A stretch of 53,529 bases of DNA, filler included, from Sluysia triapertura (GCA_046118255.1; 3 parts of 3 records of this genome joined end to end with filler, not necessarily neighbours in it); one strand, 5' to 3'. Counted from the first letter of the whole stretch, positions 6,966 to 41,181 are shown. Numbers and translations: made by a program. The notes: generated from the sequence alone by a model not told the origin.

Positions 6966-7098
6966 TGCCGGTGGTATCCCAGCTAAGTCAGAAAGTGATG
7001 AAAAATTATATCTTTATTTGGGTATTATTGATATTTTACAATCGTATCAAATAAATAAAAAATTGGAACATTCTTTTAAATCTATTATTCAAGATCCG
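6966..7098 (+). CDS. PIP5K1: PIP5K1 exon (GIIDILQ motif and activation loop)
   Basis: tttag|T GCC... gives AGGIPAKSESDEKLYLYLGIIDILQSYQINKKLEHSFKSIIQDP. KKLEH is the type I (PI4P-specific) activation loop. Donor |GTTAGT, phase 0. Confidence 0.95.
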
Positions 7099-7705
7099 GT
7101 TAGTACTATTTAATTGTTTTTGATTTTATAATGGAATAATTATGATTATATTATTAATAATGACAAAGGAATGATTTTAATTAACTGTTTAAAGATGTTT
7201 TTCTATTCAAAAATAAAATACGGAATTATTTGCAGAGATTAAAGTTATATTTCGAAATATTCTAAATATTCTTTTCGAGTATGCACCAAAATGCACATAA
7301 AATTGTTCGTGTCTCAGAGACTAAAGATGATAAATATAGGTTCTTATTTTTCCACTTTGTTAATCTTTTCAAATCATGCTATTTATTCTGAGAAATACAT
7401 TTTTATTGAATGCTCGGCATTAGTCACTTTGAATATGTTGATAAGCAATAATTAAAATAAGTTTCACTGGATTCTAATTTAAGACATGGAAGCAAACATT
7501 TTCCAAAAAGCGAGAATTAAAAGGTATAGAATAGAGATATTGCAAACGTTGATAATTGTGCATTGATTATTAATAATAATATTCATCATACGCGCGCACC
7601 TAATAACATGTTTTAAAGTTTTTTCCTTTTGTTTTATCAAATTTAAATTTTTATTTAAATCATATTTTTATTTAATTTCACTTAAATACTTAATACTTAA
7701 ATATT

Positions 7706-7706
<1 letters not shown>

Positions 7707-7766
<60 letters not shown>

Positions 7767-7790
7767 TTATGATAATAATAATAAAAATAA
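7707..7790. repeat. (TAA)n microsatellite
   Basis: Visible run of taa units. Confidence 0.95.
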
Positions 7791-8950
7791 TTTATATTGC
7801 GCTCATATCTACTGCAAAGTGAGTACTCAAAAGCGCTCAAAATATATCATTCACTATAATATTTCTGAAACAGAAAGAACTTTGCTATCTTCCAGTAATT
7901 TGACATTCTTTGGTAACTGAAAGATAAACGCTATACAACGTATCAGCTAGCTTATAATCACTGTGGATTCTGAATAGATTATTATTTAGAGAAAATTTAA
8001 AATCCCAATTAGTAGCAACGATATTTCTTTATATTTTGCATTGCTTAAATGTTAACATTAATATTTGTTATTTGCAGGTTTTAAAAATATATTTGTTTTG
8101 TCTAATTTTTTGTGATTTTCTAACATATGTTATAATCAATAAATGCAAAAGTGAAGTATGTATTTGTAATAAGTAATTGCTTATATTGTATTTTTATTTT
8201 ACATGCAAAATTTATTACAGTTTTTACACTAATTAAAATAAGCATACAAATGGACATAAATATCACTGAAAATAGTTTATTTTACGATGTCACTATAGTT
8301 ATTGGGAAATGATTGTTTTATTACTAGTCAATATGTACATAATTTTCTATATTTTTCAATTACTGATAAATAGCTTTAAAGGTTTAAAAGTATTATTCAA
8401 ATATGCACATATAAATTAAAATAAAAAAATTAAATGTGCATTTATCCAAAAAGGAATTATTGAATAACTGAAGAAAACATTTTCTGATCAACTTGGGATA
8501 TCAAATTTATTCATTTGATATAAATTTTATTAAAATTACTGTTTGACTATGATGTTTGAGTGACAAAATGGATTACATTGAAATTCCATAAATATTGTGA
8601 CAATATTTTATTAACGCATTTTGTAAAGAAAAAAGATTTTCATGAAAACTTCATATGCTAACAGTTAATTAATAAGGAAATTATCATTAAACTGTTTCAA
8701 TTCAAAAAATTATTTAATGTTTGATCAAACATTATTTTAACAAAATAATTGTGATAGAAATGAATATACCAACAAAATTTTTCTATAAATTATCAATAAT
8801 ATTTATATATAAAATAAACGCATTATGAACATTAAATAGTGAGGTTGCTAATTCAAGAAAACTAAGTAATTATTTTTTATGGAAGTTGCGTAATATCTGG
8901 GTTAACAAAATATTTGTTTTTATTTAGGGAAAATTCTCAGTAATATAAAT

Positions 8951-9235
8951 CAATATCGATCACAGATAAAGTTCTTTTTATTAAAGGGAAAAAGGAACAG
9001 AAATATTCAAAGAATTAAATATTGTGTATAAAAATGAATGTCCATCGTACGTAATGATTAAACAATGGACTAAGGAGTACTTTCGATTTTTAATGAAGAA
9101 AAGGTTGGGTTGTCTGATTGACAGTGGAGATCAAAATGAGAAAAAATATATTAAATGCGTCGGATGTTCATAAGTTACACCAGTCATTGGGTTTCAGAAA
9201 ATTGTGTTCCACATTTGCTACGCGTATATTTACTG
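8951..9235 (+). mobile_element. Mariner transposase remnant (N-terminal HTH) inside PIP5K1 intron
   Basis: Frameshifted YRSQIKFFLLKGK/GTEIFKELNIVYKNECPSYVMIKQW, plus LHQSLGFRKLCSTFATRIFT resembling LGMRKLCARWVPRLLT. Confidence 0.75.
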
Positions 9236-10036
9236 CAAAATTAGCTGAAAGCGTCTCGGATCACGTAGTGTCATGACTGAGTTGCGAGTGATTTTTAGTT
9301 CTTGAAAAGAAAGAAATTTTAATCTAAAATTTCGAAAAAACGATCGAAAGAAAATGCGCGAAGAGAAATGTTTCGCATTGAAAAATGATGTTTGCAAGTG
9401 TTTTGTTAAATATCTATGAAATCTTGTGTTGATATTTATTTTCTTTCTGCTTAATGGATGTATCATACATAAGCTCAGTTAATTTGGATACTCCATACAT
9501 TGGAAAATTATTGGTTGAAATCATTATCGGAATGTAAAGAAATCAGAATTAAAAGCCTATTAGTTTATTTTTACCATATTTAGTTATATGGTACGTGTAA
9601 ACGTGTTTTATTGTTATTGATAAATCAAACCTAAAGTCAAGAAAAATTTTTTTCACGGAATGATTAACCTTTCGTTGACCAATAAAGTACATATGCATTT
9701 AAGTAATGTATATAATATATTTCAAAAAAATTTTGACAAAAAACCAACCATATAAATAAACACATTGTTCTACTATATAAAAATTTAAGATGTTAAGACA
9801 GCTTTCATGTAACATATTACGAGAAAATAATTAATGAAATTTAACACTCGTGTTTAAAGGACTAGGTTGGTAGGCGGAAGGTTAATTTAGACAATTGTTT
9901 ACAAAATATTTTTATCTTCAATAGAACAATAGATAAACTAAATATAGAAATAAATATAAATGAAATATTTTAGAAATGAAGTTGATGATGATGACAATAA
10001 TAATAATAATTATGATAATTGTAATAATAATTTCAG

Positions 10037-10348
10037 AACACAATATCGGTCACTAGTCCTTCTTTTTACCGGAATCGATTCGAGCATATGTTCAGCGATA
10101 TTGTATTCAAGAAAAGTGAGTTGATAGTAGATGCAATTTCACTGCCTATATTGTCTCGTTCATTGAGTGCATGTAATTTAACACCAGTACCATTAATTAA
10201 TTATAATACATATGGTATTGGTGTTGATAATTATACAAAACCTACTTTACTTACTTCAAATAATTTCAATTGTAAAAATTTGTCCAATTTTAAACGATCA
10301 AAATCACATAATTTCAGAAAAAGTATTAGGAAAATGTTAAAACTGTAA
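10037..10348 (+). CDS. PIP5K1: PIP5K1 last visible exon (end of kinase domain plus C-terminal tail; alternative donor at 10116)
   Basis: tttcag| then NTISVTSPSFYRNRFEHMFSDIVFKK, matching the DTVSVHRPSFYAERF...VFKK motif. Frame stays open to TAA at 10348. Confidence 0.88.
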   Translation, partial: NTISVTSPSFYRNRFEHMFSDIVFKKSELIVDAISLPILSRSLSACNLTPVPLINYNTYGIGVDNYTKPTLLTSNNFNCKNLSNFKRSKSHNFRKSIRKMLKL

Positions 10349-11992
10349 TTTTAAATGTAATAATATATTTTGCTTGTTTTGACGACATAGCAAGTTATTT
10401 ATGCTTTTTTTAATTAACGAAATTAATCATTACGCAATCAAGGTTAATCAATTTAAATATTGTTTATGATAGGTATTATAAATATATTTATATTTATATT
10501 TATATACATACTGCGCTGCAAAAATATTAATGACATCTAAAATAATTATCTTCAATGTTGCTGTTATTTGATTTTAATATTGATGTTGTTTTTGCTTCTT
10601 AATAAATCGAAGTTGATGTACATATACAACAATGCGCACTGTATGGTTAGATCACATCACAACGAATTCTTCACTGGTAGTATTAGTCTATATTTTAGAA
10701 AAATTCTATATATTTATGCCAGGTTATAAATTCTCATTATACTTCTCATTTTAAGTGTAAAGTAGAGTAAACGATGCAAAATTGACTGATTCATCAGTAT
10801 ATTTATTTAGAAAATGTTATAATTCAAAGAAATTGATAAATATAGCTATTCGGTGTCTGATGATTTGTATTTCAAATCCTCTCAAATGGATGTAATTGGC
10901 TGAATTTTTATTTTTAAAATTCTACTTTTATCATATTCTGATTAATTTAATTTTTGATTATTAATTGGAGCTAATCAATATAATTGTTATAAATTTTATA
11001 GTACCATTATTTCAACTACTTCTATGTGTATTGTGATTTTTCTTTGTATGATTTTAGTTAATGTGGAATAATATTTTATAATAGAATCATAAAAACATAA
11101 TGTATTAAGCTGCTAAAGTAATACGGCTTAAATTAGATTTATTACTTATTAAAGAATCATATACATTCTGAAAAATATTTCAATTTTTATTATTATTATT
11201 ATTAAATGCGTTGTTTCTTATTTCCATTATGATTTCTATATTTGTTTATTCTTAGTTAAAACAATATGTGGAAACTAATTGTAAATCATTTAAATTTTTT
11301 CATATCGATTTTTAGCATTTCTCATACAGTGTTTTGATAATGATTTATCGGCTTAATTTATTGAATAGTTTTAAATAATTGCCCATTCTTAAGGAAATTC
11401 CAAAAAAATTGTATTACAGGAAATATTTTTTCATCCATGTTTAAAATAAATAAATGAAAAAATTCATTGCATGAAGTAATTAAAAGCAATCTCTGAGTTT
11501 AGAATAGGGAGGTATACTTTATGATCAAAAAGAAATATTAATTGAAAATGTAGGATAAATGAATGTGTATCATTAAACGTTTAATTTTATATTAACAAAT
11601 TGTTTTGTTTCGTGAACTGATTAAATGGTTATTTGAAATGCTTTTAAATGACATTATAACATCTATAAAAATTTATAATATCGATAAATCAGCCATATTT
11701 ACAGAAAAGTTGGGAACGAGAAAAAAACAATATTTAGAATAACAACTATATATAACGTGTTTTTGTAACATATGGAGTTCTAAGATTTTCATTTTCAAAT
11801 TCAATTTTTTAAATTAAATGATGTGTATAGTAAACGGATTTTGTACTAGCGGATTTCATTTACTAATAGAATTGGTTTTTTTGTGTGAATAAATTATGAA
11901 ATATTATAAATGAACGATTTTTTACGTAGACAAATATATATGTATAGATAGTAAAAAAGAAACGTTTTTGTTAATAAACTACAAAGGTCTAG

Positions 11993-12050
<58 letters not shown>
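11993..12050. repeat. (TAA)n microsatellite
   Basis: Visible run. Confidence 0.95.
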
Positions 12051-15000
12051 TGGTGAAAAAAATAGAATTTTTAATATGACTCAGTGTTATAAGAAAACAA
12101 TTAAATGCATGCTGTCATTTTTTAGGAATTTGTGAGATGATGAATAAAGTTCAAATATGGCATTAATTACTCTTCGGAAATATTAAAAACCTTTGCTTGG
12201 ATATTTGTTTGACATAAAGTAAAAATAATTTAATTTGTGAATAACTATTTTTATAGCTATTTGCAAATACTTAAATGGAAAAAAATTTTATGCGGGAATA
12301 TAAATTGTATTTTATATCGTCATGTTTTTGTTTACTTAAATACTTTTGTTTAAATGCGTGCAATTTGTTAAGATCTAGAATTGTCGTTAGGATGTTTTAA
12401 TAAATTGCATTAGCGTGTTTAATGAGTCTTATAGTAAATTTTACTATTAGGTTGGAAGAAGAGTTGCATTTAATTTTCTTTTCATATATATTTGGAAAGA
12501 TTTATTGGTATCGAAATTAAATATGAGAATATTCTTTTATATTTCTCAAAAAGACGTGTATTCATATTAGTGATATTCATTGTTTTGAGTAATACATTGA
12601 TTTATTTGCTGTTAGTTGCTTTGTCATCAATATTTTACAAGAAAATGAATTTTAACAGTTATAAAATCTTGTTATGTAAGACAAAAAAGGAATAAAATCA
12701 GAGAATGATATTTTGTAACTTAGACCTTTGTGGGATTATTTGCTTTATTTTATGCATAATAAACGATATAAGTCGATTTTGGAATTTCTATTAATATGTT
12801 ACTATATTACAAAATTTGCTTTTCAGTTTCATTAATAACGATATAAGAAATACCACATTATTTCTCGAATATTGTTTTACAATAAATAAATCAAAACAAA
12901 TATTTTGTTATGTCGTTAAAACGCTTCTTAACCATCAATAATGTTTCGTTTCGTATACATTAAACCAATAAGAATAATTTCAAATATATTGTTATATAAA
13001 ATTATGTTACTAAATAAATATTTCATATTTTTAAAATTTATAAAAACAAACAAATGAGAAAATACTTTCATATCCATTAATCACAGGTGACTGTATTCAA
13101 AGATTGTGCAATACTGCAAGTATGTGATAATTTATCTTTAAATTTTACTTTTTCTGTATTAATACATGATGATTTTTGTACTGTTTTGTGAGTTTTGAAA
13201 GGAAGTTAACGATTATATCTGAGTTTTATTTTATATTGATTTTCGTGGAAATTTTAACACATTAACTAGAATGCGTAATGAGCAAAAATGGGAAGAAATT
13301 CAAAATAATATTAGTATTTATTTAAGTAGCGCGTATGATAGCCAACAGTATATTATCATAATTTTAAAAAACATACATTTCAAATCGTATAAACACTCTT
13401 AAGTGACAGTCCACGAAACGGGTACTAATACCCGCACTGCTCATAATTGGTAATATATTTTCGATATTGTACAGTAAATTTATATATATATGACAATATT
13501 TAACTTGAATATCTTTGATGTTTATATTATTGACTGTTTTGTTATTAAATGTCTATTATTTATTCAAAATTACTGAAATAATAGTATTAAAAATGCACTC
13601 ATTGTATCATGATTTTATTCAAAATAATAATCATATAATATTTGTGCGATGATGTTTCATATAAAGTATATTTATTTATTATTTAAGAAATTAATTATGA
13701 AAGATAAACCAAAATGATAAATACAAATTGTTTATCACTTTTATATATTAAGTACAATTACAACATGAATATGCTCTAATTATTAGAGCTTAAAATCTAT
13801 ATCTTAAACTATTTATTAAATCCCTTGAAACATGCATCATGTTCAGTTATCATTTTCAATACAACGAGTTCTAGTGGATGTTTATTATTATGCGAAAGAG
13901 CTGAATATTTGGCGAATCACTTATGGCAATTGTAACTCATGGCATAATTTTCTATAAAATATCTTCAAGATAAAGCATTATTTCTATATGATAAATTAGA
14001 AATAGAACTTTATTGGATGATAAATCTGAAGTATTTGTCATGTATTTAAATATAACATGACTCATTAACTTTTCAAAGTGCAACATTTTATTAAAAGTAA
14101 TAAAAATAATTAATAGGAATTTTTACAAATTAATATTGTATAAGTATAATAAAGAGTTTCACAAGCCTTTTTAAGTATCTCTTTAAAATTAAAATATTCT
14201 GTATGAATTAAAATATGAATTTGCCCCTTAATATCTATTGTATATATTGACTATAGATGCTTTATGGTATTTTAGGGAATGATTTTTCCATAGAATAACA
14301 CTTTGATTATGTCTCATTCTATTTTTAATGCGATAATCGGTCGGAGGTTCACACTAAAATTGTATGTAAAATTTTATTAGTTTAGTAAATGGAAAAAAGC
14401 TACATACTGCGGGGATATGTAAGTCTCAGAGAGTGTATATGTATCCCATAATTAAACTACTGCAAGGACATATGTGGCCCAAGGCATTTTTTCAAAAACC
14501 ATATTTTCTAAAAATCTGAAATTATGTAAACATGTTCATTTACTTATTTACACCATATGCAGCTCAATTACATAGAAATATCGTATTGAAAGGGTTAAGA
14601 AAGTAAAAAGTTAAATTAATGAAGCCGCTTTAGTAAGTAAAATTCAAGTTATCACGGCATTATTAACGTTTTATTATGATCATGGATAATATTATAAGTC
14701 AAATCAATCCATTTGAATTTGATTAAATTATCAAATATTATTATCAAAGAATTTTGGTTGTAGAAGGATTAACAAAAATTTTCTATTCATATTTGCATTG
14801 CAAAATAATGGAAAGTTTTTTAAACAAAGAGAAGCATTAAGGGATAAATATACTCTACATTAACATACAAGTATCAGGAAGCAAGGAATTATTAAATATA
14901 ATTCAATGGAATTTTTTGTTATTTAAATCTGTGCTCTGTGCTTATGCCCTATTATGATAATCTATGTGGCATGGATTTATTGTGAAATTAGTCTTCGGGA

Positions 15001-18000
15001 ATCCTAATTTCTACTGAAAGTATATGTATTTTTGCGCTGCAACGATATAATTTCTGAAAAATCTAACCTAAATGTTAAAATAATATGCAGTATCTATAAA
15101 TAATAGTTGTAAAATTAAAATGTAAAATAATAGTAGCATAATAATAATATAGTAGTATGGAAATAATAATAATAAAACGCAGTATCTATTATTATAAAAA
15201 GAAGTAATAATAATGCGAGGTATCTATAAGTACTATTATGTAAAATTATAAATAATAATCATAGCAGTATCGATATATGTAATGTTGCATGTATAGATTA
15301 ATATATTGGAATTAATTATAGAAAGTAATTAACAATGGAAGTCAATATGGAATTAAATTATTGGTAATAAAAATAAAAGGTGTTTTTCAGTGTTCAAAAA
15401 AGATAGAAATATAGGATTGTTTCATACAGATATTTGGAATGAATTTGTTTGATATGGATAGTTGTAATTTTAGAAATCTGTGATATAATTATTTCAGGTA
15501 AAATTTTTTTATATAAATATTTGGAATAACAGTATTAATAACATTAACTATGATATTCGGAATAATAGTCTGACTAACAATTCAAATAACACACGGGTAA
15601 CTTGTATAATATCTTAATAATTTCAATAAATAGCATAGTTTAAGTTTCATTGGTTAAATTACGAATAGGCTATTAAATTTAAATTGAATGTTTTGTTTTG
15701 TTTACTATTATAATTATAATTTTGATATTTCACTTTGTCAACGATAAATTTTAGTTTTGCCTTGTGAGACTAAGGGGAGAAATTATATTGAAGTAATAAA
15801 TCTAAAAATTTAAAGTTTTAATAAAGCACTTGCATCTCCTACATAAGACAAAAGTAGAATTCTGATTTCCAGATACAATTAATAAATAAAGTTAAATTAA
15901 AAAATTAATATTTTAACGTAAGAGTTGATAAACTAAAGTGATTTCATTAAAGAATAATTTCTAATTTACAACGATTTTTGAATCGCTGTAAATAAAGGTT
16001 TAATGAGTTGACACATAACACAAATAAAAGTAACAAGAAAAATATTACACAACTGTAAAGTTAAATATTGATAACTCTTACGCAGTCGAATTTTATTTTC
16101 AGCATAAATATTATGATCGATAAAAGTAAGAAAACAAAACATAATTTGAAAAATTCAAGGAAACTATCAAATAAAACGATGATAAATATTGATTTTTAAT
16201 GTTGCTAATTAATATTTAATTTAAATAACATTTTATTTAATAATGTGCTTTTTTAAACGAATTGATTTATATAAGAATGAATTTATATTTCCGAAATATT
16301 TAATGAAAATAAAGTTGCCAGAATTGAACAAATGTGATTAGATTTTTGCGTTAATTTTATTGAATGTGATTTCGAATTTTTATGAAGAAAATAACGAAGT
16401 GGTGGTATATTTTTATTATCTCAAATGAAATTTGTCAGGAAACGTTAATAAATTGTAATTAATGTAAATTTTATACCCAATTTAAACTATTCTGTTATAA
16501 AATTCATAAATTTGTTTATTAAGATGTGAAAAATAAATTCAAACAAATCGGGAGAATGGGTATGTATTATTTAAAAAAATATGGCTTGCGTATTTATTGT
16601 TATCATTTTAAAAATAGTGATTTAGAATATTATTAATTTTTTTATTAAATTGATTTTACATTAATGATGATTCTTTGATTAAAATGTTTATTGACAATTC
16701 CAACTAATTGAATGTACAATGCATATTTATGAAACGTTAGATTTTTGGTGGTGATAAATTAATGCATATGAGAATATTAAAATACTCTAAACACATAACT
16801 AATCAAAAATCGGACAATATATTAATCAAGTGATTTAGGGCATTAAAAATATTATATTTCTATTTAGAAATTGTGTGATTAGACTGAAATATTAAATTTA
16901 CAAGTTTCAAAATAAATTCTTATGCCTTAGTATATTTTACAAACAATAGTTGAATATTCTATACTATTGCAATATATTCATCAATATTGGCAAAATGGTC
17001 AACCACAACGTAATTATTAACAATTAAAAAGATTTAGGCAAAATTAATAAAATTATCAATTTATTAAATTAGTACTAAGTTAACTTAGGAAAATAAAAAA
17101 TTAAAACCATCTTAGATAACTAAAATGTAGAAAGAAATTGTCCACTGCAAAGTTAATATTATTTTCTTATCGCTTTTTCGTTACTTTTTTGATTTAGCAT
17201 TTTTCATTAGTTTATGACTTGATTCAGATGGGCTCGAATTAATTCGATTACATTAAGTAGCTAATATGAGACAAAATTATCTGTATTTTTATTTGAACTT
17301 AATGATCAATAAAAAAGTAAACAAATGTATTTATTTTTCGATGTTTTGATATTGATATAAAATAAAAAATTAAAATTTTAATTATTTAAATTTTTTATTG
17401 TTAAATTAATTCATAAAATAAAAATGTAGAAGTATAATTATTACATGATTTTAAAGATTTTTTTATTAATTTGGTCATTACAATTTTATGTTTTAATTAT
17501 GTAACCTTATTTAAAGAAAATAATTCTCATTTATATAATATAAACCTATTGATTTAATTTTAAGTTAATCTGTGAACAAATTTATTAAAGATTAAAATAT
17601 TTTTTAATTAATAAAGTGACTTTTCTAAATTAAGTTAATAATGATTACTAAAAGTAAATTTAATATAAAAATTTTATTAATTTGTGGTGCATATTTTAAT
17701 TTATGCTAAACATTAAACATTGGAATAAGTATTTATTGAAACATAAGTTTAATTAATATTTAAAAATAATAATAGGCTTTTGATAATAGAAGACGAAAAA
17801 ATATTACTCAAAATGCTAATCTATGGTTTTCTATCATTTCATTGTCAAATTAAACATAAGCGAATTTAATTTATATCTTATTTTTATATTAAGTTTGATA
17901 TAGGTGTTATTTATAAGTAAAATTATACTTCTAATTATGTTTAGAATATAAAGTGACTTTACTTAATCACAAATTTTGTTTGGTTTTTAAGCAATTGAAA

Positions 18001-19274
18001 TAATTTTCAATAAATTTTCAGAAGAAAGAGTTTCCAGCGAAACTGAAATATTACCATATTAAATTCAATTTTCAAAGTAATTAAATCGACGTTCGATTAT
18101 TATTTTGTATTTACAACAAAAACTTACATAAGTGAGTCATTTAGGTTATTAGATTTTAATGAATTACGAATATTTAATGTGTGCCTATATGTTCTGCGTC
18201 TCGATAGTTGTTTCTGGTGACCGTTACTGGCCAATCAGAATTATCACTTTTTAATTATGTGCTATGCAAATTACATAATTACATGCTACATTACCAATTA
18301 TTAAAAAATTGTTTATATGCAAATTTAAAATTAGCTTATGAATCAAACTATTAAACTAAGTTAGCCATATAAATTTTAGTGAAAAATAATTTTATATAAT
18401 GCTGTGTATAACATTATATATATGCTAAAGGAGTTCTATCAGATGCCTTTTGTACTTATTTATCCTTAATTTCTATATTTGCAAGCTCCTTTATTTAAAA
18501 CTAACTCACGAAATTATCTCTAGTATCCAATTTTCACTCTATTGAGTGACGTTTCTCAGGGATTGTGATTTAAATCTTTGTAACTCAAATGCTTATTCAG
18601 TTTATGATTCTCTGAAGGTTTGATTAAATTTTTTATGAGTTTTCTACTTTTTCATTAACTACTTAAAGGTAAATATACTTATATTTACACCTACCTACAT
18701 ATCACATAAATCATAACATCCAAATACACAAATTTCATCACAAAAAATTATATGGCAAGTTTTGTCCATATCATTAACAACATCCCATCACACAGATGCA
18801 TAATAAAACCCTTTTTACTAACATTTTCGATCAAAACAAAACACTCGTTATCATCCTATCATCATTACTACACAACACTTTCCTCGTGTCTTGCAGTTTT
18901 CATTTTTTATTTTTCTTGTAATTTTAGAAGTGTATAATTGTAGTATTTTATATTTACGCATAGCCATATAAAATTATGTCCTTATGTATAATATTTAATT
19001 TTTCGGCCGACATGTCCATCTATTATCCTGGAATTCACTATAAAAAAATTAACAATCATAGTAATCGATTTCAACGCATTTATATTACTTATAAATTGGT
19101 TTAACTGTTCCTTTTAGCGTTTAAAGCCTTGTTAGTTACGCGAAGTCCACTATTTCTTATTCACAATACTCCTTTCCAGGTTTCTTTTTTTCAACAACGT
19201 GAAACTTTTAGCAGAATTACTGAAAATATTTCGGAGAACTAAAAGAGAGTTTAGAAAAGTTTAAGAAACCAAGA

Positions 19275-20215
19275 AAAGACGTTACATATTTAAATAAAAT
19301 TAGAGAAACGTATGAATAAATGGAAAAGCAAATTCCACCAGATACTGTTCATAAAGTTTTTAAATATTTAGTCATTAGTATGAATGGAAAAGTCTAATAC
19401 GGAACATGATTTGCGATATTCGATGTGGCAGCTAACTTGTATACAAATGATAACGATATGAATTGTGATGCGGATTCATTTTCAAGTATTCTTAAATCAC
19501 AACGTTATTCTTATCGTAGTCTCAATTTCGGGTCTGAACACTTAAAATTAAAAATTATCCAATGGTTATCAAACCCAACGCATTATTTACTGGGTAATAA
19601 AAATAATTTTGAAGTTAAATTACAAAAATTAAATAGCTACGAACCAAATCAAATTGAGAAAAATGAATTAGAATCTTTAACTGAAACATTTATATCAAAA
19701 AATTATCCATTGTGTATCGATTATATAATATTAGCAATATTCAGTTAAAAATAATTATAAATAATGAATTTTAAAATTTAGCAAAATATTTGAACTGAAT
19801 TTAAACGGCTAATGGAAATTATATAAAGTTTGACAGCATTTTCAATTAAAATCATTTGTTTGAAAATTACTATTTTTCAAAAATTAATGACCAAATTATG
19901 TACCTGAAGAAATCAAGCAAGAGTTAATTATGGTAAACAGATTTCGCAACAACAGTTAGTTTTTCAAAAATTAATGATGAAAACAAGCAAATTAAGGAGA
20001 AATCAAGCAAAAATTTCATGACTGCAGGCGATGAGGAAATGTATGATAACTGGCCAAGTCACGTTGGGCGACTCACTTTGAGTCTTGATGTAAACGATGT
20101 GTCTAAAACTTTACAAACAATTTATTGTCAATGTATCGATAAAGCAAAGTGTTTCTTAGTCAACAATGTTATATGTCATGTCGAAGACTTAGAATTCGAA
20201 TTTTATGAAATTTAA
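19275..20215 (+). pseudogene. Decayed intronless ORF of unknown function
   Basis: One frame runs from about 19275 through ORF 19425-19748 with a few point stops, and further fragments extend to 20215. A C/A-rich tract at about 18690-18900 precedes it. Confidence 0.35.
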
Positions 20216-20725
20216 AGATTGGATTAAGGTAATTGTATGAAAATTTTACATTTTATCCTTTTATTTAATTTATACAGTGCACAATGTGTCTAAAACTTTA
20301 AAAACAAATTATTGTCAATGTATCCATAAAGCAAAGTGTTTCTTATTCAACGATGTTATATGTCATGTCGAAGACATAGAATTTGAATTTTACGTTTTTA
20401 TGAAATTTAAAGATTTGATTAAAGTAACTGTAAGAAAATTTTATTTTTATCCTTTTATATGTTTTATACAGTAAACGATGTGTCCAAAACTCTAAAACAA
20501 ATTATTGTCAATGTATCCATAAAGTAAAGTGTTACTTAGTCAACAATGTTACGTGTGACGTCGAAGACATAGAATTTGAATTTTATGTTTCTATGAAATT
20601 TAAAGATTTGATTAAATTAATTACACGAAAATTATTTTATCTCTTTATGTATTTTACACAATAACCGATGTATTTAAAAGTCGAAAGACAAGTTATTGTC
20701 AATACATTCATAATATAAAGTACCT
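20090..20725 (+). repeat. Tandem repeat, about 3.3 copies of a 187-194 bp unit
   Basis: Units start at 20090, 20277, 20471 and 20661 (GTAAACGATGTGTCTAAAACT...ATTGTCAATGTATC...GTCGAAGAC...). Confidence 0.93.
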
Positions 20726-20764
20726 GTATGAATTTTATAATTATTTCTATTTTTATAATGCCTA

Positions 20765-22030
20765 TCGCGTAAAAGATTGTTCTGTCTCCCATCTTACAAA
20801 GATTTGCTTTGTCATAACAGGCTTTTTCCTAAAGAAACCGAACACTAGGTCCATCCTGGGTAGAATCTGCAAGAATGTAATTTGGGTCCGCCGCCTAGGC
20901 CTACGTGTCACTCTACAATAATTGTTTGCAAATAGCCGGTTGATTTATTCGGGCAATTTTTATTCTTGAGTTTGGACATTTAACAAGGACTAAAAATGGT
21001 ATAATTATTAAAGATAATTTTACAGATTCCGATGTGGTTGAAATTGTAGGTAATTTGTAATTTTTTAATAGTTTCATCTGCTTCTGGATGTTCGTTTGTT
21101 TTCAAGGTAAAGGTGAAGTTTTGAACGGTTAGTTGGTGTTTTTTATAAATTGGGTTTAAGTTGGTTATAGATATATTATACATTCGATTAGGTCGTTACT
21201 GTTTAAAATTAACCAGTATTTTTGAATAAGGTATATTATTTGTTGTATATGTATAATATTCTCTTGAAATACTTATTCTCAAGGATAGGATTGATTGAAG
21301 ATCCGCATATATTGTTATTTTATGTGTTTGCAAGGAAAATGATAAATCCGAAATCCAATTTTGTGAATAAACATGTTATCATGGCTAATAACACGAATGT
21401 TTGTAAATGCAATCTTCTCATGTTACTATAAGTGAGTGACGGATTGTTTGCATATGGTGGGGGTATTATATTATTCATTGATTCTTCATAAGGCGGTGGC
21501 CTTTGTCTTTGTAAATTGTAGAATTTCCAAATCTTTCGTAAGATTAACAAAAGAATTAATGCAAGTGTCATTAAAAAAGAAATGGGATTATTAGCATTAA
21601 GGTAAATAATGATTCGTGTAATACTACTGAGGTAATGGTTGTATTTAAGTCTTCATTTGGGAACTGTAATATCCACGTATGGGAGTTTCTTACCACATTA
21701 GAATAACAAGTTCTAGCCTTATAATCCGAACATTTCCTTGAAAAATGCAATTAAATGAATTATATTGGTAATAAATGAACAATGGTGTCGGTCGCAAGAT
21801 GGTTTGCAATAAAGTAATACACTATAAGTGTTATTTTTAAGGTATACTGAAAGTGTATAATTATTTCTTTCGAATTTTACAGGAAATTTCTCATAATTTT
21901 CTGTCTTAACTAGATTGCTCCAAATTATACTAAATAATAAAATTATTAAGATGTTCCTTAATCCGTTTACATTAAAGTAGCTTATTGTTTTTCTTGATTG
22001 AATTAGACATATTTTATTCTTTGTCTTAGA
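20765..22030 (-). pseudogene. env-like membrane glycoprotein region fused downstream of gypsy integrase
   Basis: Signal-like segment, Cys/N-glycan ectodomain, TM helix, tail with two PPPY motifs, second signal-like segment, second Cys/N-glycan-rich ectodomain. Broken by frameshifts and stops. Confidence 0.6.
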
Positions 22031-24680
22031 ACGAAGATTGTATGGCGATTCTTTCACTGCTATTTTATATCAATTTTCATGAACAATTTTTGTTTTCTTT
22101 GAACTTTTATTCGTGACTTCTAAATTAGTATGAGTTACATTAATAACTTCATATGATCCTTTAAATGGTCTATTTAATTTGGATGTTTGTCCATTTGAAA
22201 TTGCTGAATCATAAATTAAAACTTGACTACCAACTCTAAATTTATGAGGTTTAGCCTTTTGTCATAGTATTCTTTCATATTCTCTTGGTTGTGTTTAATA
22301 TTTAAACCAGCTCTATTCCAAGCATCATTTAATCTGGCTTTTACAGTTGACATATAATCTGGTGTATCCATATATTGTGATTGGGATCCTGACCAATCTA
22401 AATCAATTGGAATATTGGTATGTCTGCCATACATTAGATAACAAGGTGTTTATTTTGTTGTTGTATGAATAGTATTTCTGTAAGCAAATAGACATGGTTT
22501 AATATATAAGTCCCAATCTGTTTGTTTAGAATTTACATAATATTGTAGCATATTTACTAGTGTTTTATTAAATCTTTCTACTAATCCATCCGTTTGTGGA
22601 TGATATGGTGAAGTGTATATTCTAATAATTCCAAAGAAATTTGTAACAGCCGCTAGTGTTTTACTTACAAAATTTTTACCTCGATCGATATATTATTTCT
22701 TCTACAAATAATTGCGCTACCGTTTCTGCTTTCTGATCTTGCATCGGAAAAGCTTCTGGCCATCTTGTTTGGTAATCTGCGAATACAAGTATATATTTAT
22801 TTCCTCTAGATGTGACTGGTAATGGTCCTAGTATGTCCATCGCTGTACTTTCCATAGGACTTGTTGGTATTGGCATTGGTTGTAATGGTGTTTTTTTTTG
22901 ATCCTGTATTTTTTCTTGTTGTGCATATCTGACATGTATTGCACCATCCTTTTACATCTTTACATAAGGTTTTCCAATAATATTTTTAATGTTTTACCAG
23001 AAGATAAATGTCCTCCTAGATGTCCATCATAGTATTGTATCATTAAAGCAACTTTTCTTTTTCTGGTACTACGATTCGTAATCCATCTTTAGTTACATAT
23101 TTTAATAAACTGTTTTCCAATTTCCATTAAGCAGCTAATTCGTTTGTTATTTCGTTACCTATGATAAGATCGATTATAAGTTTTAATTCAGGGTCCTCTC
23201 TTTGGGCTTGTGCCATTGATTTTTCGTTTTTACTAAGATCTATCATCATTGCACTTATTTCACCTTTTTCATTAACGTTTTCTAATTTTGACATAAAATC
23301 TGCATTTTTATTATAAACTCCTTTTCTATAAGTTATTTCAATACCATATTCGGCTAATGTTAGACTCCATCTAGCTAATCTTACTGTTACGTTTCGAATA
23401 TCTCTCAAATACATTAGTCGTTTGTGATCAGTATATAAATATACTTTGTGTCCTAATAAATATTGTCTGAATTGTTTTAGTGCATAAATAATTGCTAAAC
23501 ATTCCTTCTCTATAACTGAATATCGTGTTTCACATGAATTTAATCTTCGACTTCCATCTTTATCCTTTTGTCTTAATATTGCTCCTATTGCAAAATCGCT
23601 CGCATCTGTCATAAGTATGAATGGTTTCTCCATGTTTGGAAATAGGTGCTGTTATAAGTGCTGTTTTTAATGTTTGAAAAGCATTTTCTTGAGTCTCTGT
23701 CCAAATAAAATTTTTTATTAGTTTACCTTTTTCTTTTACATCCTTATATTCCTTTTTTGTAAGTTCTGTTAATGGTTTAGCTATTGTCGCAAAATTCTTT
23801 ATAAATTTTCTTTAATAATTTGCCAATCCTAAAAAAGCTTTATCTTCTACTTGTTTTATAGGAGTTGGAAATAATTTAACCTTTTCTATCTTTTTTGGAT
23901 CTGGTGATATTCCATGTTATGACACTACATGTCCTAAAAATATAACTTCTTCTTTAGCCCATCGCATTTATTTTTAATTTGGCATTTTCTAAACGAATAA
24001 ATACTTCTTCTATATCTCATAAATGACTTTCAAAATCTATAGAATATATAATTATATCATCTATATATACCATTGTATGTTAACATCCTGCTAATACAAA
24101 ATTCATAGATCGTTGAAATGTAGCAGGGGCTCCTGTTAATCCAAAAGGCATCTTTTCACATTCAAATAATCCTTCTTCTGCAGAAAATGCATTTTTATGT
24201 TTATCTTCTGATATTGCTATTTGCCAGTATCCACTTTGTAAATCCAATGTTGTGAAATATTTCGATTTTCCAAGTTTATTAAGCATATCATGTATTCTTG
24301 GTAAAGGATATTCATCTTTTATTGTCACTTCATTTAATTTTCGAAAGTCAATACAAAATCTCATTGATCCATCCTTTTTTTAACTAATAATACTGGAGCC
24401 GAATACGGTGAAAAACTAGGACGTATTACTCCAGCCTTTTTCATTGTTTCGATTTGTTCTTTCATTATTTCTGTATGATGAAACGGTATTGGATATGGTC
24501 TTAATTTAACAGGTTTATCTGTAGTTAATGGAATTTTGTGTTTAATGACTGTAGCACTACCTATGTCATATGGATTTTTTGATAATACTTGCGGATATTT
24601 ATGTAAAAGCTGTTTCAATTGTATTTTTTCTGTTGCAGATAAATTATCATTATCAATTATAACTTCTTTATAGTCTTCTG
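22031..24680 (-). mobile_element. pol: Degenerate Ty3/Gypsy LTR retrotransposon pol (RT-RNase H-integrase)
   Basis: RT: SPYSAPVLLVKK, RFCIDFRKLN, LDLQSGYWQI, MPFGLTGAPATFQR, YIDD. RNase H: TDAS, YSVIEKECLAI, TDHK, NKNAD. Integrase: H2C2 finger, DILGP, SPYHPQTDGLVERFNKTL, GPY/F-like FKGSYEV. Many frameshifts. The 5' part is lost in the gap and no LTR is seen. Confidence 0.96.
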
Positions 24681-24780
24681 NNNNNNNNNNNNNNNNNNNN
24701 NNNNNNNNNNNNNNNNNNNNNNNNTTAATTAATTAANNNNNNNNNNNNNNNNNNNNNNNNNNNNNNNNNNNNNNNNNNNN
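24681..24780. other. Artificial assembly join (N44 + six-frame-stop linker TTAATTAATTAA + N44)
   Basis: Exact symmetric 100-bp spacer, identical to the one at 37188. Confidence 0.95.
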
Positions 24781-24833
<53 letters not shown>

Positions 24834-24856
24834 TACTACTACTACTACTACTACTA
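24781..24856. repeat. (ATT)n(ACT)n compound microsatellite
   Basis: Visible run at the contig edge. Confidence 0.95.
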
Positions 24857-25806
24857 TATTCAAATGTGAATATTCAGAATGGTTCAAATTAAGTAAAAGC
24901 AGTGTCAAAAGACCATCATTATAGATTGGGTGAAACAAGAAACAAAAATGATAAAACAAGAGTAGGTCTATTAGATAAGGGGTATAAATATAAAGATAAG
25001 AAGTAAATTCCTTTACCAGGCCTTCATTTATACATTCATTCTACAATATCAGAATGTGTAATTTTAAAATAAATTGTACTACGTCAATGAAACAGATTAC
25101 AAATGAGAAATGAAGAAAGAAATATACAGAAAAAGATATTTATATGAAGAATGAAATAAAATAAATCGATATTATAAATGGCAAATAAATAATTACACAC
25201 GGATTCTTATTTTTATTGGTATTTGTAAGTGTCTCATAATAAACTTTAATAAATTTGAGTCTTCTCATTTGAGTCTTCTTCTTCAAATTAATTCATCTAT
25301 TTACATTTGCAGCTGTACCATAAGATACGAGTCACAATCAAAATTAATTACTGTTAATGTGACAAAAACAATTACAACTGTGTTAAACGCTCGCAGAATT
25401 GTGAAAATTCACATTAGATGAATATGCCCGCTCTAATTCCGTAAATAATTGTGATAAAAATTTATTATTTATTACTATAAAATAAAAATACTTTATAATA
25501 TTATATAATTTGTGTTTATATCTATATTCAATAACTTATTAATATCAAAATTATTCGAAAATTTCATAAAAATCTCAAACTACAATCCCTTTTAATTTTT
25601 ATCTTCATATTTGATATTGTCAGTACTTTAACTCGTCTCTGTGTGTTGAGGCGGAAATGAAAATTATTCAAGCTCAATAACACTTTAAACTAGATTTGAT
25701 GTTGTTAAGGTAAGAACAGTTGCAGCAACCACACGTAACAGTTTACAATTGTGCTTGATTAACTTATTTTATTGGATGTATGAAAATTGAAGTTAAAGAA
25801 GTGATA

Positions 25807-25883
25807 GAATAAAAACTAAAGCTGTGATATCGTTAGTTCACCAACGTACTGGACTTACCAGCAAGGGCCAGCCGTTGGAATTT
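25807..25883. repeat. Conserved dispersed motif, copy 1 (GAATAAA...GTTAGTTCACCAAC...GACTTACCAG...CAGCCGTTGGA)
   Basis: Similar to copies at 27011-27081 and 37309-37376. Confidence 0.7.
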
Positions 25884-27010
25884 ACAAAATGAGAAAGGTA
25901 GTTAAAGTCTTGAACGTTCAATAATTTTAGAACTATATATCTTAAATGCCTGGATGTTATTCTTACTGTGTCTTGTCTTATCAATTTAAAAGTTATTTTG
26001 CACAATCATATAGCCAGGATTCTTTATAATCTAAATTATCTTTCAATTATTGATTTTTTCTTTTTAATTATATCAATAATCAATGCTGTTTTTTAAGAAA
26101 AATTTATTATACACAAAAGAAAAAACTGAAATACAATGGATAGGATAAAATAATAATATATTTTACACGAATTACTGACTGTAATTCTGATTTATTGAGA
26201 TTTTAAAAGTGAATTTTCAGTGATCTATTGCAAGATCACAAAAGTTGATTAATAAAAGAATTTAAGTATATTTTTCACCGATATTTTAAAAAATCCTACC
26301 TTAGATAAAACAAACTAACATTTACAAATGAAAATTATTCGAGTCAATATGCGAAAAATTGTTTATCCAACGATTGCGTGAGGATTGAATTTAAAATTGT
26401 GAAACAAATGAATTTGAAAATTGTGTCAAATGTGTTAATATTTATATTTTTTCGCATATTAACCTAGAAGGTTAATTTAAACAAATTAAAATTCAATTAT
26501 TTAAAAAAAATTATTTATTAAAATAAAAGTTTAATTTAAATAAATTAAAATTAAAACTCACTATTGATATAAATAAATTTCCAAATTAATAGATCATAAA
26601 ATAAATCCAAATATTAATAAAATAACTATAATCAATATTAATAAAATTAATAAGATTCAAGGTGTTTACAATAAAATCAATAATATTGTTATCGACGCGC
26701 ATATAGGCAATGACAATGCAGTCGCTGTCCATTAACGTGTTAATAGATGATCAATTTATTTGTATTATTTGATTATTCTATATTTTAATTTATATCTTGT
26801 AATTGTTTAACAGCTTATTTATTTTAATTAATTTTGTTGTATTTCACCCTGATAAAATAATTACAGATACCACGACAAGGCTCAAATGATAATACCTTGT
26901 AATATCCCGAAATCAAATATAGCAGTGTAGTTAAAAACAATACAATGCATACCATGTTGCAAATCTGCTGATAATAATTATTGCGAATAATTTTTTTTCT
27001 CTTGTCTTAT

Positions 27011-27081
27011 GAATAAAGAACATATATAGTGAGTTCACCAACCTATCTAGACTTACCAGTTATGGCTAGCTTTTGGATTTT
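27011..27081. repeat. Conserved dispersed motif, copy 2
   Basis: GAATAAA...GTGAGTTCACCAACCTATCTAGACTTACCAGTTATGGCTAGC...TTGGATTT. Confidence 0.7.
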
Positions 27082-28378
27082 AAAACTATAAATTTTATTA
27101 TGATTAATAATAAGACAAATTTTATCACTTAAATGTATTATTAACAGAATTATGCTACAACGGAATTAATATAATAGATAATAAATTACAAAATTAACTG
27201 TTCTGAGTTAATGTAATAAACAGTGATTTGAACAAATATTTTGCGTTAAAACTTTTGAATAGTTCTACAATTATCAAAATTAACGATTTTAAGTCAAACA
27301 TTATGTTGTACCTATTAAGTACGGCCTTAATTAAAAATAAATTAATTGTTCAAGAGTCGGTTCCTTCGGATTATAATATCAATCCACCAAATTTTGCACC
27401 AAGAGTAATTGTCAAAATTGTCGTAAAAACGTATTGTATTATGAAAATTATTGTAAATGTTACGTTATTTTATAATAGTTCTAGAAATGACCTTGACATT
27501 AATTTTAATAATTTAAACCAAGTAAAAATAACAAAAAATGTTAACAAAATTTTTTTTAATCCAAATAAATTACTTTAAAACTTCTAAAAATGAGTGAGTT
27601 CGCATGTGATCAGATATTTACGCAATTAAGGGTTCGTCCACAGGATTTAGGTACCATTAACTACGTAAAAATTTATTGCTTAATCAGTGTATAATTTCTA
27701 CATAACAACCTTGGTGAATAACTCAATTGAATAACTTTATGTCCTCGTAATAATGAGGTTTGGTTTATGATTTTATAATCCTGTATTAAAAAGGATCTGA
27801 AAATGATAAGTTTATTACCGTAACTAAACCGGTGTTGAAAAAACAATTAACTAGTGATTAAGACTACATACATTATTTGCCTTCTGTAGATTTGTCTTCA
27901 TAAATTATAGAATTATATATTGTAAAATTATTGTTATTTCTTTTATTGTTATAGTGTTTATTACTTGACTTATAAAAGTTTTTATTCATATGTAAATAAA
28001 CTTTATTACAAAACTAGTGCTTAAGGTACTCGAACATTTTGTTACGAAAGAAAATTTTAATGCAAAAATAATACGAAAGTTCTTTATTCAATATAAGTAA
28101 CATAAATTTTACAATAATTGATGACACATATGTATAACAGACGAATCTAAATATATAATACTTACATTTATTAAGGATAATAACTATATAACCAGAACTC
28201 AGATGGTTATGTGAACTCATCCCATATTTTTCAATAATATAAGTTCCATAATAAGATTTTGAACATAAAAGTAGTTGAAATAATGGAATTTACAAACATA
28301 CTTGATACTGTAAAAAATCTTATAGCACAAAAGATATTTTGAAACAACATAAACCCCTCCACAAAACCTTGAAACAAA

Positions 28379-29782
28379 TTATAACTGTTGTGGTTTAGTA
28401 TAATTAATAAATTTCAAATTATGCTTTAAATTTTTTTGATTAAAAAATATGTAAAATCGATTAATAAAGAAATTAATAAGTTCTAAGAAATTCTTTTTTT
28501 TAATTAAAATTTGAAAACAATCCTCAACTTTTTGTTCAATAAAGAATAAACAAAATTCACATGAAAATTTATTTATTATAATTTTGAATTTTATGTACAG
28601 TCTTCTGTGTGTGCTCCTGATGCGTTTCCACATTTCACTACCTGAATAACAAATAAAAATTACAATATTATCAACGTAAATAAAACAATTATTTACTCCT
28701 TGCTCGTTAATGATTAAGTTGTTGACAGTCAAATTCATAGTCAATGAACTAAGACTCATGACTAGTTCTGTTATTCTAGAAGAATGATAGTTATAATTTG
28801 AATCGTTTCTCTTGATAGAACCCAATTCACAGACTGTATGAGCATAGAAGCAGTAAATTCCACTCTTTATACATATACCATTGTTGTCAGTACTGAATGG
28901 GCAAAAAGGAATCTCGTTAAATTGGTTTGAATCTGACCTGCTTAACTGACTTATATGTTTTCTTGATTGTTTTGTAACGCTTCCTTTAAATTTTAATACA
29001 TAATCAAACTCTTCATCAATAGCATCATCTTCATAATTGTTTACTGGTGGCTCATTTAAGAAAAACTCTTTCGATTTAAATTGGTGCTCATAGTGCGATT
29101 TTCTATTTGTATGAATTAACATGTAAACAGATTTTTCGAAAATCATTGTGTATATATAAGATATATCTTGTTTAATTTGTACATCAACATTATTAGTGAG
29201 AGTATTAAGCAATAATTTCTTTATTAGTTCAAATTCTTATGTTACCTTTAAATCATCTTTAGGTGTATATTTAGTTGGATCTCTTTTATAGATTACAATA
29301 TTCACATAAATCAACGGCATGCCATCATGAAGCCAAGTAACGGTTGATTTAATCAAAGCTCTAATCATATTCACTTTGTCAGCTTTCTGGGTTCCAGTTG
29401 CTAAAATAGGTGTAAGTAAAGACCAGTCTTTGTCATTAAGTGTTGTAAACCAGGCTCAGAAAACATCACTAATTAGAGAAGTATGGTTGTGAAAACTAAA
29501 TTTGCTATGTCCTGCCTGTAACACAATAAACGTTTATAAGGTAAATGACATTGTGAATCTTTCTATGACCCTTCGTAGAACTTCATGTTTTGACTCGCAA
29601 AATTCAACAATCAGGCATGAATTAATTTCTAATATACCAATTACGGTTCTTGGTATAGGCATATACTTATTTGGAAAAACGAGGTCCAAAATTAAATTGA
29701 TTTTATATTTTAGAGGCAAATTAATTGTCTCTCTCAGTAACACTTCTAGCTTGTCATTTTTGCCACAAATTTTAATATTCAT
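28379..29782 (-). pseudogene. Intronless Roquin-like (ROQ + CCCH zinc finger) ORF of 468 codons with three premature stops
   Basis: ORFs 29534-29782 and 28379-29212 share one frame. CCCH finger: CPFSTDNNGICIKSGIYCFYAHTVCEL. The N-terminal part aligns by eye with the Roquin ROQ domain. Confidence 0.55.
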
Positions 29783-36147: not shown

Positions 36148-37008
36148 TTATGTCACAGAATTTTTATAAGTTGAATTTACATGCACATTTTCCAATTGAA
36201 TAAACTCGTCTATATAAATATTACAATTCGGTAGAAATTCATGTCGGATTTCGGGACCCGAACAGTTTAAATGAATACTAAATTTAATTGTATCAGTCCT
36301 GATCAAAGTAACAGCATACTTAGAATATTCAGTTTGAAATTCCATAATTTGAAGAACAATAAGTAGTACAACATATCAGATGTGAAAGTCAGTATTATTT
36401 GCACTCTTTTTAGTAATTAATACAAGATCGTTAAACAAAAATATGATTACCGAGTTGATATTTATCAACTCATTAAAACTTAATTGGCACACGAGTTTTC
36501 TGTGATTTTGAATTAAATCTTTAGGTAAATGTGGGCTATTAAGTTGCTTGGAAATATCTCTAACAATGTCAGTATGACCTTTATGAGGTTTCATTTGTTT
36601 ACTTTTAATATTATCATATGTTTCGTTTAAGTAATCTTCTTTAATGAAGGACTCATTATTTATATGTTTAAAAAGATTAATAAATTGTTCCTTGGTCATA
36701 TATCTTGTTTTCTAGCCGATGGATTAAATGAAATATTATGGAGCATCAGAGTTGTGAAGCACTATAGAATCAAGATTTTATAACATTTCTTAAAATTCGG
36801 GATTATGACATAAATATGCATCTCTGAAATCTTCTAATCTATTCAATATCTTTTGAGTTTCACCAATAGTTATGTAGTTTTCATTACTTGCATTATATTG
36901 GAATTCTGCAATTTGAGATTTAATGAGGTTTGCTGGCGTAATTATTACATAATTTAGAATGATGTTGCTGATGTTAATATGAAAGTTATTATGTGGCAAT
37001 CGTGGCAA
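36148..37008 (-). pseudogene. Intronless, frameshifted IQSEC/BRAG-type ArfGEF fragment (Sec7 C-half + PH)
   Basis: GETQKILNRLEDFRDAYLCHNP (Sec7 motif 1 with the Glu finger), ILIL*CFTTLMLH..FNPS (motif 2), MTKEQFI..YDNIK, then HRKLVC and IFLFNDLVLITK (IQSEC PH). Confidence 0.8.
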
Positions 37009-39970: not shown

Positions 39971-41181
39971 ATGATAACAATTGCAGCTAAATTATCCGGA
40001 ATATTAGATTACATTTCCAAATTAAAATGGTCAAAGCCGGCTCAAGTTCAACAACATGCTATACCATTTTACTGAAACGTAAAGATGTTATTGGTTTATC
40101 TAAAACCGGCAGTGGAAAAATTGTTCCCTATGGTATTCCATTTATTTAACAATGTCTGATCAACGATCAACCATTAATGTATGTAATGATTTTGATTCCT
40201 ACAGTTGAATTAACAAAACAAAAGTATGTTCTATTAATAAGAATGAGTAAAGGATTAAATCTTAAAACAATGTGTTCAACTAGAGGTATAGATATGACCG
40301 ATCAATTAACGGAACTTACTATTTTACATGTCCACATTGTAATAGCAACTCCGTGTCAAATTTTAATGATGTTCCACAATCCCAATCAAATTAAGGAAAT
40401 TTTTTATTCTATACAACATTTGGCAATTGAGGAGGCAGATAAAATTATGCGTTATCAATTAGATGAAGAGATCGAAAGAGTTTTACGAATGTTACCACCA
40501 AAGTTAAGTTATAAAAGAAAGGAGAGAAATAAAAAGATGTTCAAACGAATACAAATTCATTCAGCAACATGTTGTGGCGAAGTTGAAAAGAAGTATGATG
40601 TTCAACTTGTTGATGTCACATTTAAAAAATAATTTTCCAAGACGTTTGAAACTTTATGTTTGGGCTGTGTCAAATGATACTGAAGATAAAGTTACTTTTA
40701 AAGTAATATGTGAAACATTAATGCATTATACTGATAAAACATATCTAATCAAAGTTTTAGTCTTTGTTAATGATGGTCCTGATACATGAATCCAGTATAA
40801 GTAAAATGAATGTTAAAACATTTCGGCAATATGCTCGGATCCGAGAATGCTTCGACAAAAACGTGAACTAAATAGGAATCCCTTCAAATCGAGTGATACG
40901 TATGTATGTTTACTGCTGATTTTTCCATTAGAGCGTTAGATGTCAAAGATATCCTTTTAGTCGCCAATCTCAACGTTCTAGGAAATGTGGATCCTTATCG
41001 TTATAGAGTTAGTAGAACTGCAAGAAATGTTAAAACAGTTTCTGTTCCTACCTTCGTATTTCGTGAAATAAATGATATAAAAGTAAATTTTATTAATCTC
41101 CTAATTGATTTGAAATTAACTTTATTTTTTGTTTATTCAGTAGAATCTATACTTTTGCCATGTGGTATATTCAGAAAATGA
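39971..41181 (+). pseudogene. Intronless degenerate DEAD-box RNA helicase
   Basis: Q motif (WSKPAQVQQHAIP), I SKTGSGK, Ia PTVEL, Ib ATPCQI, II EEAD, III SAT, IV LVFVN, V IRALDV, VI YRVSRTAR. Frameshifts and stops present. Confidence 0.9.

Follow-up and report, generated by a model that had tools for sequence, protein, structure and literature searches.

Retroelements of the Ty3/Gypsy type that carry a gene behind pol are known from several animals. Chary and Hayashi reported that the env of the Ty3/gypsy "ancient errantiviruses" is of the F type or the gB type (PMC13524379), and ankyrin repeats and in-frame multi-domain polyproteins are also known in Gypsy elements (PMC5408684, PMC6431247). 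This article addresses a Gypsy element of Sluysia triapertura (GCA_046118255.1), contained in a stretch of 53,529 nucleotides, filler included, in which parts of three records of the genome are joined. This whole stretch is referred to as the window. Behind the integrase of the element, on the minus strand, lies an extension of ~360 codons with a signal-like stretch, an ectodomain, a transmembrane (TM) helix, a tail with two PPxY motifs, a second signal-like stretch and a second ectodomain.

A pol-fused surface-protein module in this Gypsy lineage is real, with at least two architectures, and the extension most likely yields a surface protein that Nedd4-family ligases sort. We will discuss the coding status of the extension, its nearest relative, the tests made on its tail and ectodomains, and its position among the described systems.

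A coding extension behind a decayed pol

The window is AT-rich, with about 25% GC, and contains assembly gaps. Its element is Ty3/Gypsy (Metaviridae) by the order of reverse transcriptase (RT), then RNase H, then integrase. Pfam RVT_1 matches at E 1.4e-17 (24080-24379), RT_RNaseH at E 2.1e-32 (23127-23651), and the integrase through rve (E 2.8e-4) and rve_3 (E 1.3e-4) at 22450-22951, all on the minus strand. The pol is decayed, with at least 15 breaks, and the pol of the metagenome locus L001 aligns with it in eight collinear tblastn pieces. The assembly gap at 24681-24781 has removed the 5' part of this copy, including gag, protease and any 5' long terminal repeat (LTR). An LTR-like direct repeat was sought in 18000-27500 of the window, and none was found.

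The extension region is coding. Reading the 1085 bases from 22069 to 20985 takes 4 breaks, and reading their opposite strand takes 15. Three null models gave means of 14.6, 13.9 and 11.9 breaks, and no simulation in 3000 had 4 or fewer. The pol itself carries 6.3 breaks per equal length. Across 180 background stretches of the window the mean was 13.8, and the 3 stretches below the extension's count overlap the long open reading frames (ORFs) at 28379-29236 and 44900-45616.

The extension also belongs to the repeated element, because it is covered as deeply as RNase H. Depth was taken from contigs of the one public run (X1) that contains the stretch, no RNA data set with it being listed, and the values are summed contig depths, not copy numbers: 10,113-23,285 over 20972-22207 (the extension), 16,301-27,378 over RNase H, up to 95,245 over RT, and 116-1,712 in the flank at 18500-20765. 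Depth is 1,835 in 20766-20971 and 16,031 in the next bin. Given this fall and the lack of a recognised LTR, the window copy may be cut short there, and the membership of 20765-20950 in the repeated family is not clear. Only 195 of 3655 aligned contigs are 99% alike, so that either the window copy is old or the family is diverse. Indels were compared with other copies in 12 listed rows of 32, six of them inside the element. Three of these six fall at independently inferred frame changes (21573, 22256 and 23057), and two are multiples of three. The stop at 21198 is hit by one of the 16 listed difference sites on the inferred path (40 of 609 rows listed).

The peptide strings quoted in an earlier, sequence-only reading of this DNA were all found in the minus-strand translation, and the integrase tail and the first signal-like stretch do share a frame, as it had stated. 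From 22260 down to 21721 this integrase-tail frame is interrupted only by the stop at 22072, and in it lie YNLRS (22042), the hydrophobic stretch at 21964-21908 and the string CKPSCDRHHC. It is back at 21652-21322 with MTLALILLLIL, PPPYEE (21499), PPPYAN (21463) and LQTFVLLAMITCL. A second frame contains LFTLMLIIPFLF, and its 130 codons from 21375 to 20985 include RPNRMYNISIT and a single stop (21198). There are sequons at 21862, 21835, 21645, 21177, 21120 and 21006, and the TM helix is about 24 residues long. Signals and TM were derived from hydropathy only. The hydropathy peaks of the proposed signal/TM topology are present, but three inferred frameshifts, at about 21750, 21573 and 21376, are needed along the path. 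The last of them would join signal 2 to ectodomain 2, since the frame of signal 2 stops at 21322. Below about 21100 two frames are open and the reading is ambiguous; in the third frame, the hydrophobic stretch 21032-20976 could be the membrane anchor of the second protein.

Table 1. Features of the Gypsy element and its extension (window coordinates)
Feature	Position	Strand	Basis
Decayed Gypsy pol (RT, RNase H, integrase)	22073..24680	minus	Pfam order and collinearity with L001
Integrase end: stop 22072, YNLRS 22042-22028, KICLI 22015-22001	22001..22072	minus	Sequence; cleavage at KICLI putative
Signal-like stretch 1, integrase frame	21908..21964	minus	Kyte-Doolittle 1.79 over 19 aa
Ectodomain 1 (five Cys and three sequons in about 95-100 aa), frameshift near 21750	21610..21907	minus	No family match
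TM helix, frameshift near 21573, then RKIWK	21539..21609	minus	Hydropathy 1.94 and 2.12 in two frames
Predicted 39-aa cytoplasmic tail: PPPYEE 21499, PPPYAN 21463	21422..21538	minus	Unbroken frame 21652-21322
Signal-like stretch 2, Met start, MRRLHLQTFVLLAMIT	21376..21421	minus	Translation and hydropathy; link to ectodomain 2 putative
Ectodomain 2, 130 codons, one stop 21198, three sequons	20985..21375	minus	FN3-like E/F-strand motif 21195-21163
Third frame as an alternative: stalk rich in Thr/Ser, hydrophobic stretch 21032-20976	20918..21101	minus	61 open codons; hydropathy 1.65
End of deeply covered part of element	20766..20971	unassigned	Depth fall; no LTR recognised

One explanation of this arrangement is that separate small ORFs, or captured host fragments, lie in frame with pol by chance. 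The window copy has the stop at 22072 and protein 2 has a Met at 21421, two of the links are inferred frameshifts, and an in-frame junction has a probability of one in three. However, the translation has no Met between 22069 and signal-like stretch 1, and the PPxY tail and signal 2 occupy one unbroken frame. The stop at 22072 also falls within the C-terminal motif of the integrase; at this place L001 is open and continues in frame, its motif reading YPLRS...TVCMI against YNLRS..KICLI in the window. A chance link is very improbable in our judgement.

Around the element, a purine run, AAGATGGGAGA, at 20786-20796 (minus) could be a polypurine tract, with no TG after it and no LTR recognised. Just past the 3' end of the element, at 20090-20703, a 193-bp unit is repeated in tandem 3.2 times (84% matches), and this array is moderately repeated in run X1. 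The gap at 24681-24781 holds the spacer TTAATTAATTAA, and the gap at 37188-37288 matches it in the repeat scan. Diverged pieces of host genes were recognised by Pfam elsewhere in the window: PIP5K at 113-379, an unkempt-like CCCH zinc finger at 28379-29236, Sec7-PH (IQSEC-like) at 36376-36711, and a DEAD-box helicase at 40150-41181. With these pieces the DNA is likely to be that of an animal.

The sister element L001 and the pol tree

A search with RNase H yielded the sequence P0005 (65%) and 11 metagenome loci including L001 (JGI contig Ga0209893_1000108). L001 is the nearest long pol found, with 52.5% identity over 810 columns; the next-best identities are 48.0% over 429 columns and 44.7% over 798. 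A pol tree was built on 31 rows and 814 columns, all rows projected on L001, using FastTree and SH-aLRT. With near-duplicates and short loci excluded, it took in 14 of 25 proteins and 16 of 30 loci. The window pol groups with P0005 (100), and then with L001 (100 SH-aLRT; FastTree 1.0). The clade is left unnamed, because the tree holds no named Gypsy clades.

The locus L001:1-6663 is a single intact frame of 2220 aa. It encodes, in this order, a protease region, then RT, RNase H and integrase, the motifs YPLRS and TVCMI, a second protease of the DTG kind (E 2.2e-8), ankyrin repeats (E 1.7e-11) and a surface protein. In the surface protein, nine sequons lie in about 390 aa that are flanked by a hydrophobic segment (1743) and a helix (2157), and a short tail comes last. 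Three repeats were picked by eye in it. The third is recognised by the Pfam family Fn3_Dep-1_1st (E 3.3e-4, spanning 2-91 of 100 aa), and the first and second have no Pfam match. Among the Atlas look-alikes listed for the ectodomain, 9 of 10 are fn3 clusters (0.83-0.86), which is a lead only. None of 8000 candidates of 30-1220 aa matched this ectodomain, and no PDB sequence matched below E 1.6.

The L001 surface protein is in frame and has no fusogen match, and in-frame, non-fusogen surface proteins therefore recur in the lineage. The claim of a retroelement that encodes a surface protein in the frame of pol is supported as far as it concerns a coding region, repeated with pol and paralleled in L001, and is not supported in its "enveloped" part. 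Since the sister L001 is intact, this lineage reading is testable. The downstream ORFs and post-integrase domains of L001 have no match in the window. The first of these ORFs (6861-8249) is a diverged paralogue of the second (29% over 124 aa, E 1.7e-12), the second (8592-9923) is an RNase_T-family exonuclease (E 6.5e-9), and a 43-nt direct repeat lies between them at 8368 and 8446.

The locus L012:948-8111 (IMG/VR contig) is a Gypsy gag-pol-env (Baculo_F) in one frame of 2387 aa, does not group with the window in the pol tree, and was alone recovered by the scans of viral contigs. None of the 25 pattern loci was a relative. In a hydropathy screen of 18 loci on GTDB contigs, many of them short, one (L014) has a long TM-bearing ORF beside pol. 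This Gypsy element (L014:12926-15068) lies in a cyanobacterial metagenome-assembled genome (MAG) contig, and its separate 714-aa signal/TM ORF after pol has no Pfam match. In a 16-Mb "Nitrospirales" MAG (G002; loci L015, L017, L029 and L061-L075), Gypsy elements occur together with 50 matches to FN3, most of them within short open frames, and animal host contamination is likely.

The PPxY tail and the two ectodomains

The PPxY motif binds the WW domains of the Nedd4 family. The two motifs reported behind the TM helix are indeed present in one unbroken frame, 21652-21322, and they are the only two in the window (107,054 six-frame residues). In Markov simulations none of 5000 had two PPxY within 25 aa in one frame, and 610 of 5000 had at least one. 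The motifs sit 13 and 25 residues past the helix and RKIWK, and we infer that the pair is on the cytosolic side. Protein 1 is thus likely to be ubiquitinated and sorted to endosomes or budding sites.

Two PY motifs just past a helix are typical of adaptors such as PMEPA1, Ndfip and Commissureless. The extension may, then, be host-manipulating cargo without a role in particle exit, in which protein 1 is a Nedd4-adaptor-like membrane protein that binds a host receptor and directs it to degradation, and protein 2 is a secreted or anchored decoy. L001 has non-structural cargo (the second protease, the ankyrin repeats and the RNase_T-family exonuclease ORF), and enzymatic and regulatory cargo occurs in rotifer and planarian Gypsy elements (PMC5408684, PMC6431247). 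Fusion to pol, however, couples synthesis to particle assembly and is the position of env in L012, and no host partner was identified. We consider this account unlikely.

The first reading had also suggested an enveloped element as one option, and a comparison with class I/II/III fusogens. No F, gB or other fusogen family of Pfam matched in three frames or with ectodomain 1 read with X, where decay lowers sensitivity, while the Baculo_F ectodomain of the positive control L012 was recognised at E 6.3e-13. The designation of this env as a class I-III fusogen is unsupported. No RX[KR]R site with a fusion peptide behind it is present on the inferred path. An ectodomain of several hundred residues, as in env of the errantivirus type, was not seen, ectodomain 1 having about 95-100 aa and ectodomain 2 at least 130 aa. 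The marks of sORF2/FAST proteins were also missing, with no Met or MGxxxS/T and a signal-led ectodomain of ~95 aa. The env-like region had no homologue among 1487 candidates from proteins of 616-2000 aa, and one frame of 21320-22069 had no match in 1.84 billion representatives; ectodomain 2 was outside both searches and that of the Atlas. A thioredoxin assignment for the ORF 21722-22069 was rejected (Atlas look-alikes at most 0.82), and weak Pfam matches to NicO, DUF4923 and PH in the window were judged to be chance.

These results bear on another explanation, which is that of a novel or 3'-truncated true envelope, with protein 1 a companion glycoprotein carrying a late domain and protein 2 the start of a lost fusogen. 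Viral polyproteins with two glycoproteins are laid out in this order of signal, ectodomain, TM, tail, signal and ectodomain. Near 20950 the deep coverage stops without an LTR, so that the copy may be cut short, and an in-frame env after the integrase exists in Gypsy, as L012 with its Baculo_F ectodomain demonstrates. Such an envelope is nevertheless unlikely. Besides the missing fusogen match, the empty search of 21320-22069 and the absence of a cleavage site with fusion peptide, the stalk and hydrophobic stretch at 21101-20976 suggest a short protein 2, and the last part of the sister L001 is an FN3-like type I protein that matches no fusogen.

The FN3 likeness of ectodomain 2 is weak. The RPNRMYNISIT motif is present, and a local FN3 profile, built from 38 FN3 domain sequences, gives ectodomain 2 a score of 4.3 bits with profile positions 30-75 in register; 22 of 1000 shuffles scored as high, and ectodomain 2 ranks 4 of 1608 window pieces. 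The Pfam-recognised repeat of L001 receives only 2.3 bits from this profile, which makes the test weak in both directions. When ectodomain 1 was aligned to the L001 repeats by hhalign, only the Cys-to-Tyr motif was aligned (probability 0.1%). A comparison of ectodomains 1 and 2 detected no paralogy. Single-sequence AlphaFold models had pLDDT of 43.5 and 29.9, too poor for use, and the best hits of a VIA-align fold search (Z 5.6) were generic beta-sandwiches, which are non-diagnostic. FN3 in ectodomain 2 is accordingly suggestive, at the motif level only.

The explanation that we prefer, and to which we give an even chance, is that the extension encodes FN3-type surface proteins (adhesion or receptor-mimic) that are freed from Pol by protease and sorted by ligases of the Nedd4 family, and that are not a classical fusion envelope. 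KICLI and TVCMI resemble retropepsin cleavage sites, and the element's own retropepsin would cut at KICLI, releasing the integrase. As no Met precedes signal 1, either read-through from pol or a spliced RNA would give rise to protein 1. Signal 1 would insert ectodomain 1 into the endoplasmic reticulum (ER), and the helix with its basic flank would keep the PPxY tail in the cytosol. Signal 2 would then re-enter the ER and open a second lumenal domain, and signal peptidase would free protein 2. WW-domain ligases may bind to this tail and direct the protein, along with associated particles, to the cell surface or to endosomes; there the beta-sandwich ectodomains may bind target cells or host receptors. 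As fusion machinery is not visible, host endocytosis or vesicle transfer would have to provide for uptake.

Several observations weigh against this explanation. Protein 2 starts with a Met of its own, and a separate gene may encode it. The listed indel row at 21064 does not fit the inferred path, and the inferred frameshifts at 21750 and 21376 are absent among the 12 of 32 indel rows listed. Pfam finds no FN3 in the window, in three frames or with ectodomain 1 read with X, and three unrelated window pieces outscore ectodomain 2 on the local profile. With hhalign, ectodomain 2 reaches a probability of 0.4%, with 3 of 60 and 2 of 60 shuffles as high. Ectodomain 1 gains no support from the local profile, 393 of 1000 shuffles scoring as high. 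The FN3 match of L001, at 21.1 bits, is under the Pfam cut-off of 26, and its long ORF has no PPxY. L001 is also the only relative seen with the extension, P0005 ending inside the integrase, and the L001 ectodomain has no sequence similarity to those of the window, so the two may be independent captures.

A broader proposal is that the lineage has replaced env with receptor-like FN3 proteins fused to Pol and uses PPxY-driven Nedd4/ESCRT sorting to exit in vesicles, which then dock on target cells; this would make a third, non-fusogen kind of envelope next to the F and gB types. This is rather unlikely at present. If true, it would suggest a further means by which retroelements leave or enter cells, or remodel the surface of the host cell. 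Such a pol-fused FN3-like lineage, one member of which bears late-domain motifs, would be invisible to searches seeded with F, gB or FAST-like proteins.

Comparison with known systems

No description of such a layout was found in the full-text literature searched by title and abstract start, a scope that leaves Repbase, subscription journals and supplements outside, and none of L001 in the same scope. Troyka (PMC12440569, consulted in part) was weighed as a known system and dropped.

The small single-pass sORF2/FAST-like membrane proteins of insect LTR retrotransposons belong to Gypsy elements without env and are linked to cell-to-cell spread (bioRxiv 10.1101/2025.03.14.642691). They share the small, single-pass form with the window proteins, but sORF2 has a myristoylated ectodomain of 10-50 aa and its own ORF, and PPxY does not occur in the consulted text of that preprint. 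Small TM ORFs without env homology, DEDD exonuclease cargo and env in frame are described from rotifer and planarian elements, such as Vesta/Juno and Burro (PMC5408684, PMC6431247). Unlike the extension, Vesta4 ORF3 is a separate ORF with RXXR and a coiled coil (PMC5408684), and the Burro env is of the F type and precedes pol (PMC6431247). The word "fibronectin" is absent from the consulted parts of PMC5408684 and, by search listing, from PMC6431247.

The "ancient errantiviruses" resemble the window element in that, in a non-model animal, a signal-ectodomain-TM protein comes after a Gypsy pol (PMC13524379). The window proteins differ from theirs in matching neither F nor gB and in being far smaller, arranged as a tandem pair and equipped with PPxY; fibronectin, FN3, ankyrin and PPxY have no occurrence in the main text of that paper, as far as it was available. 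L001 shares a sister pol, the integrase-end motif, an internal signal in frame, a glycosylated beta-rich ectodomain, a TM helix and a short tail. It is unlike the window in placing a second DTG protease and ankyrins before the signal, and in carrying one TM protein with an ectodomain of ~390 aa.

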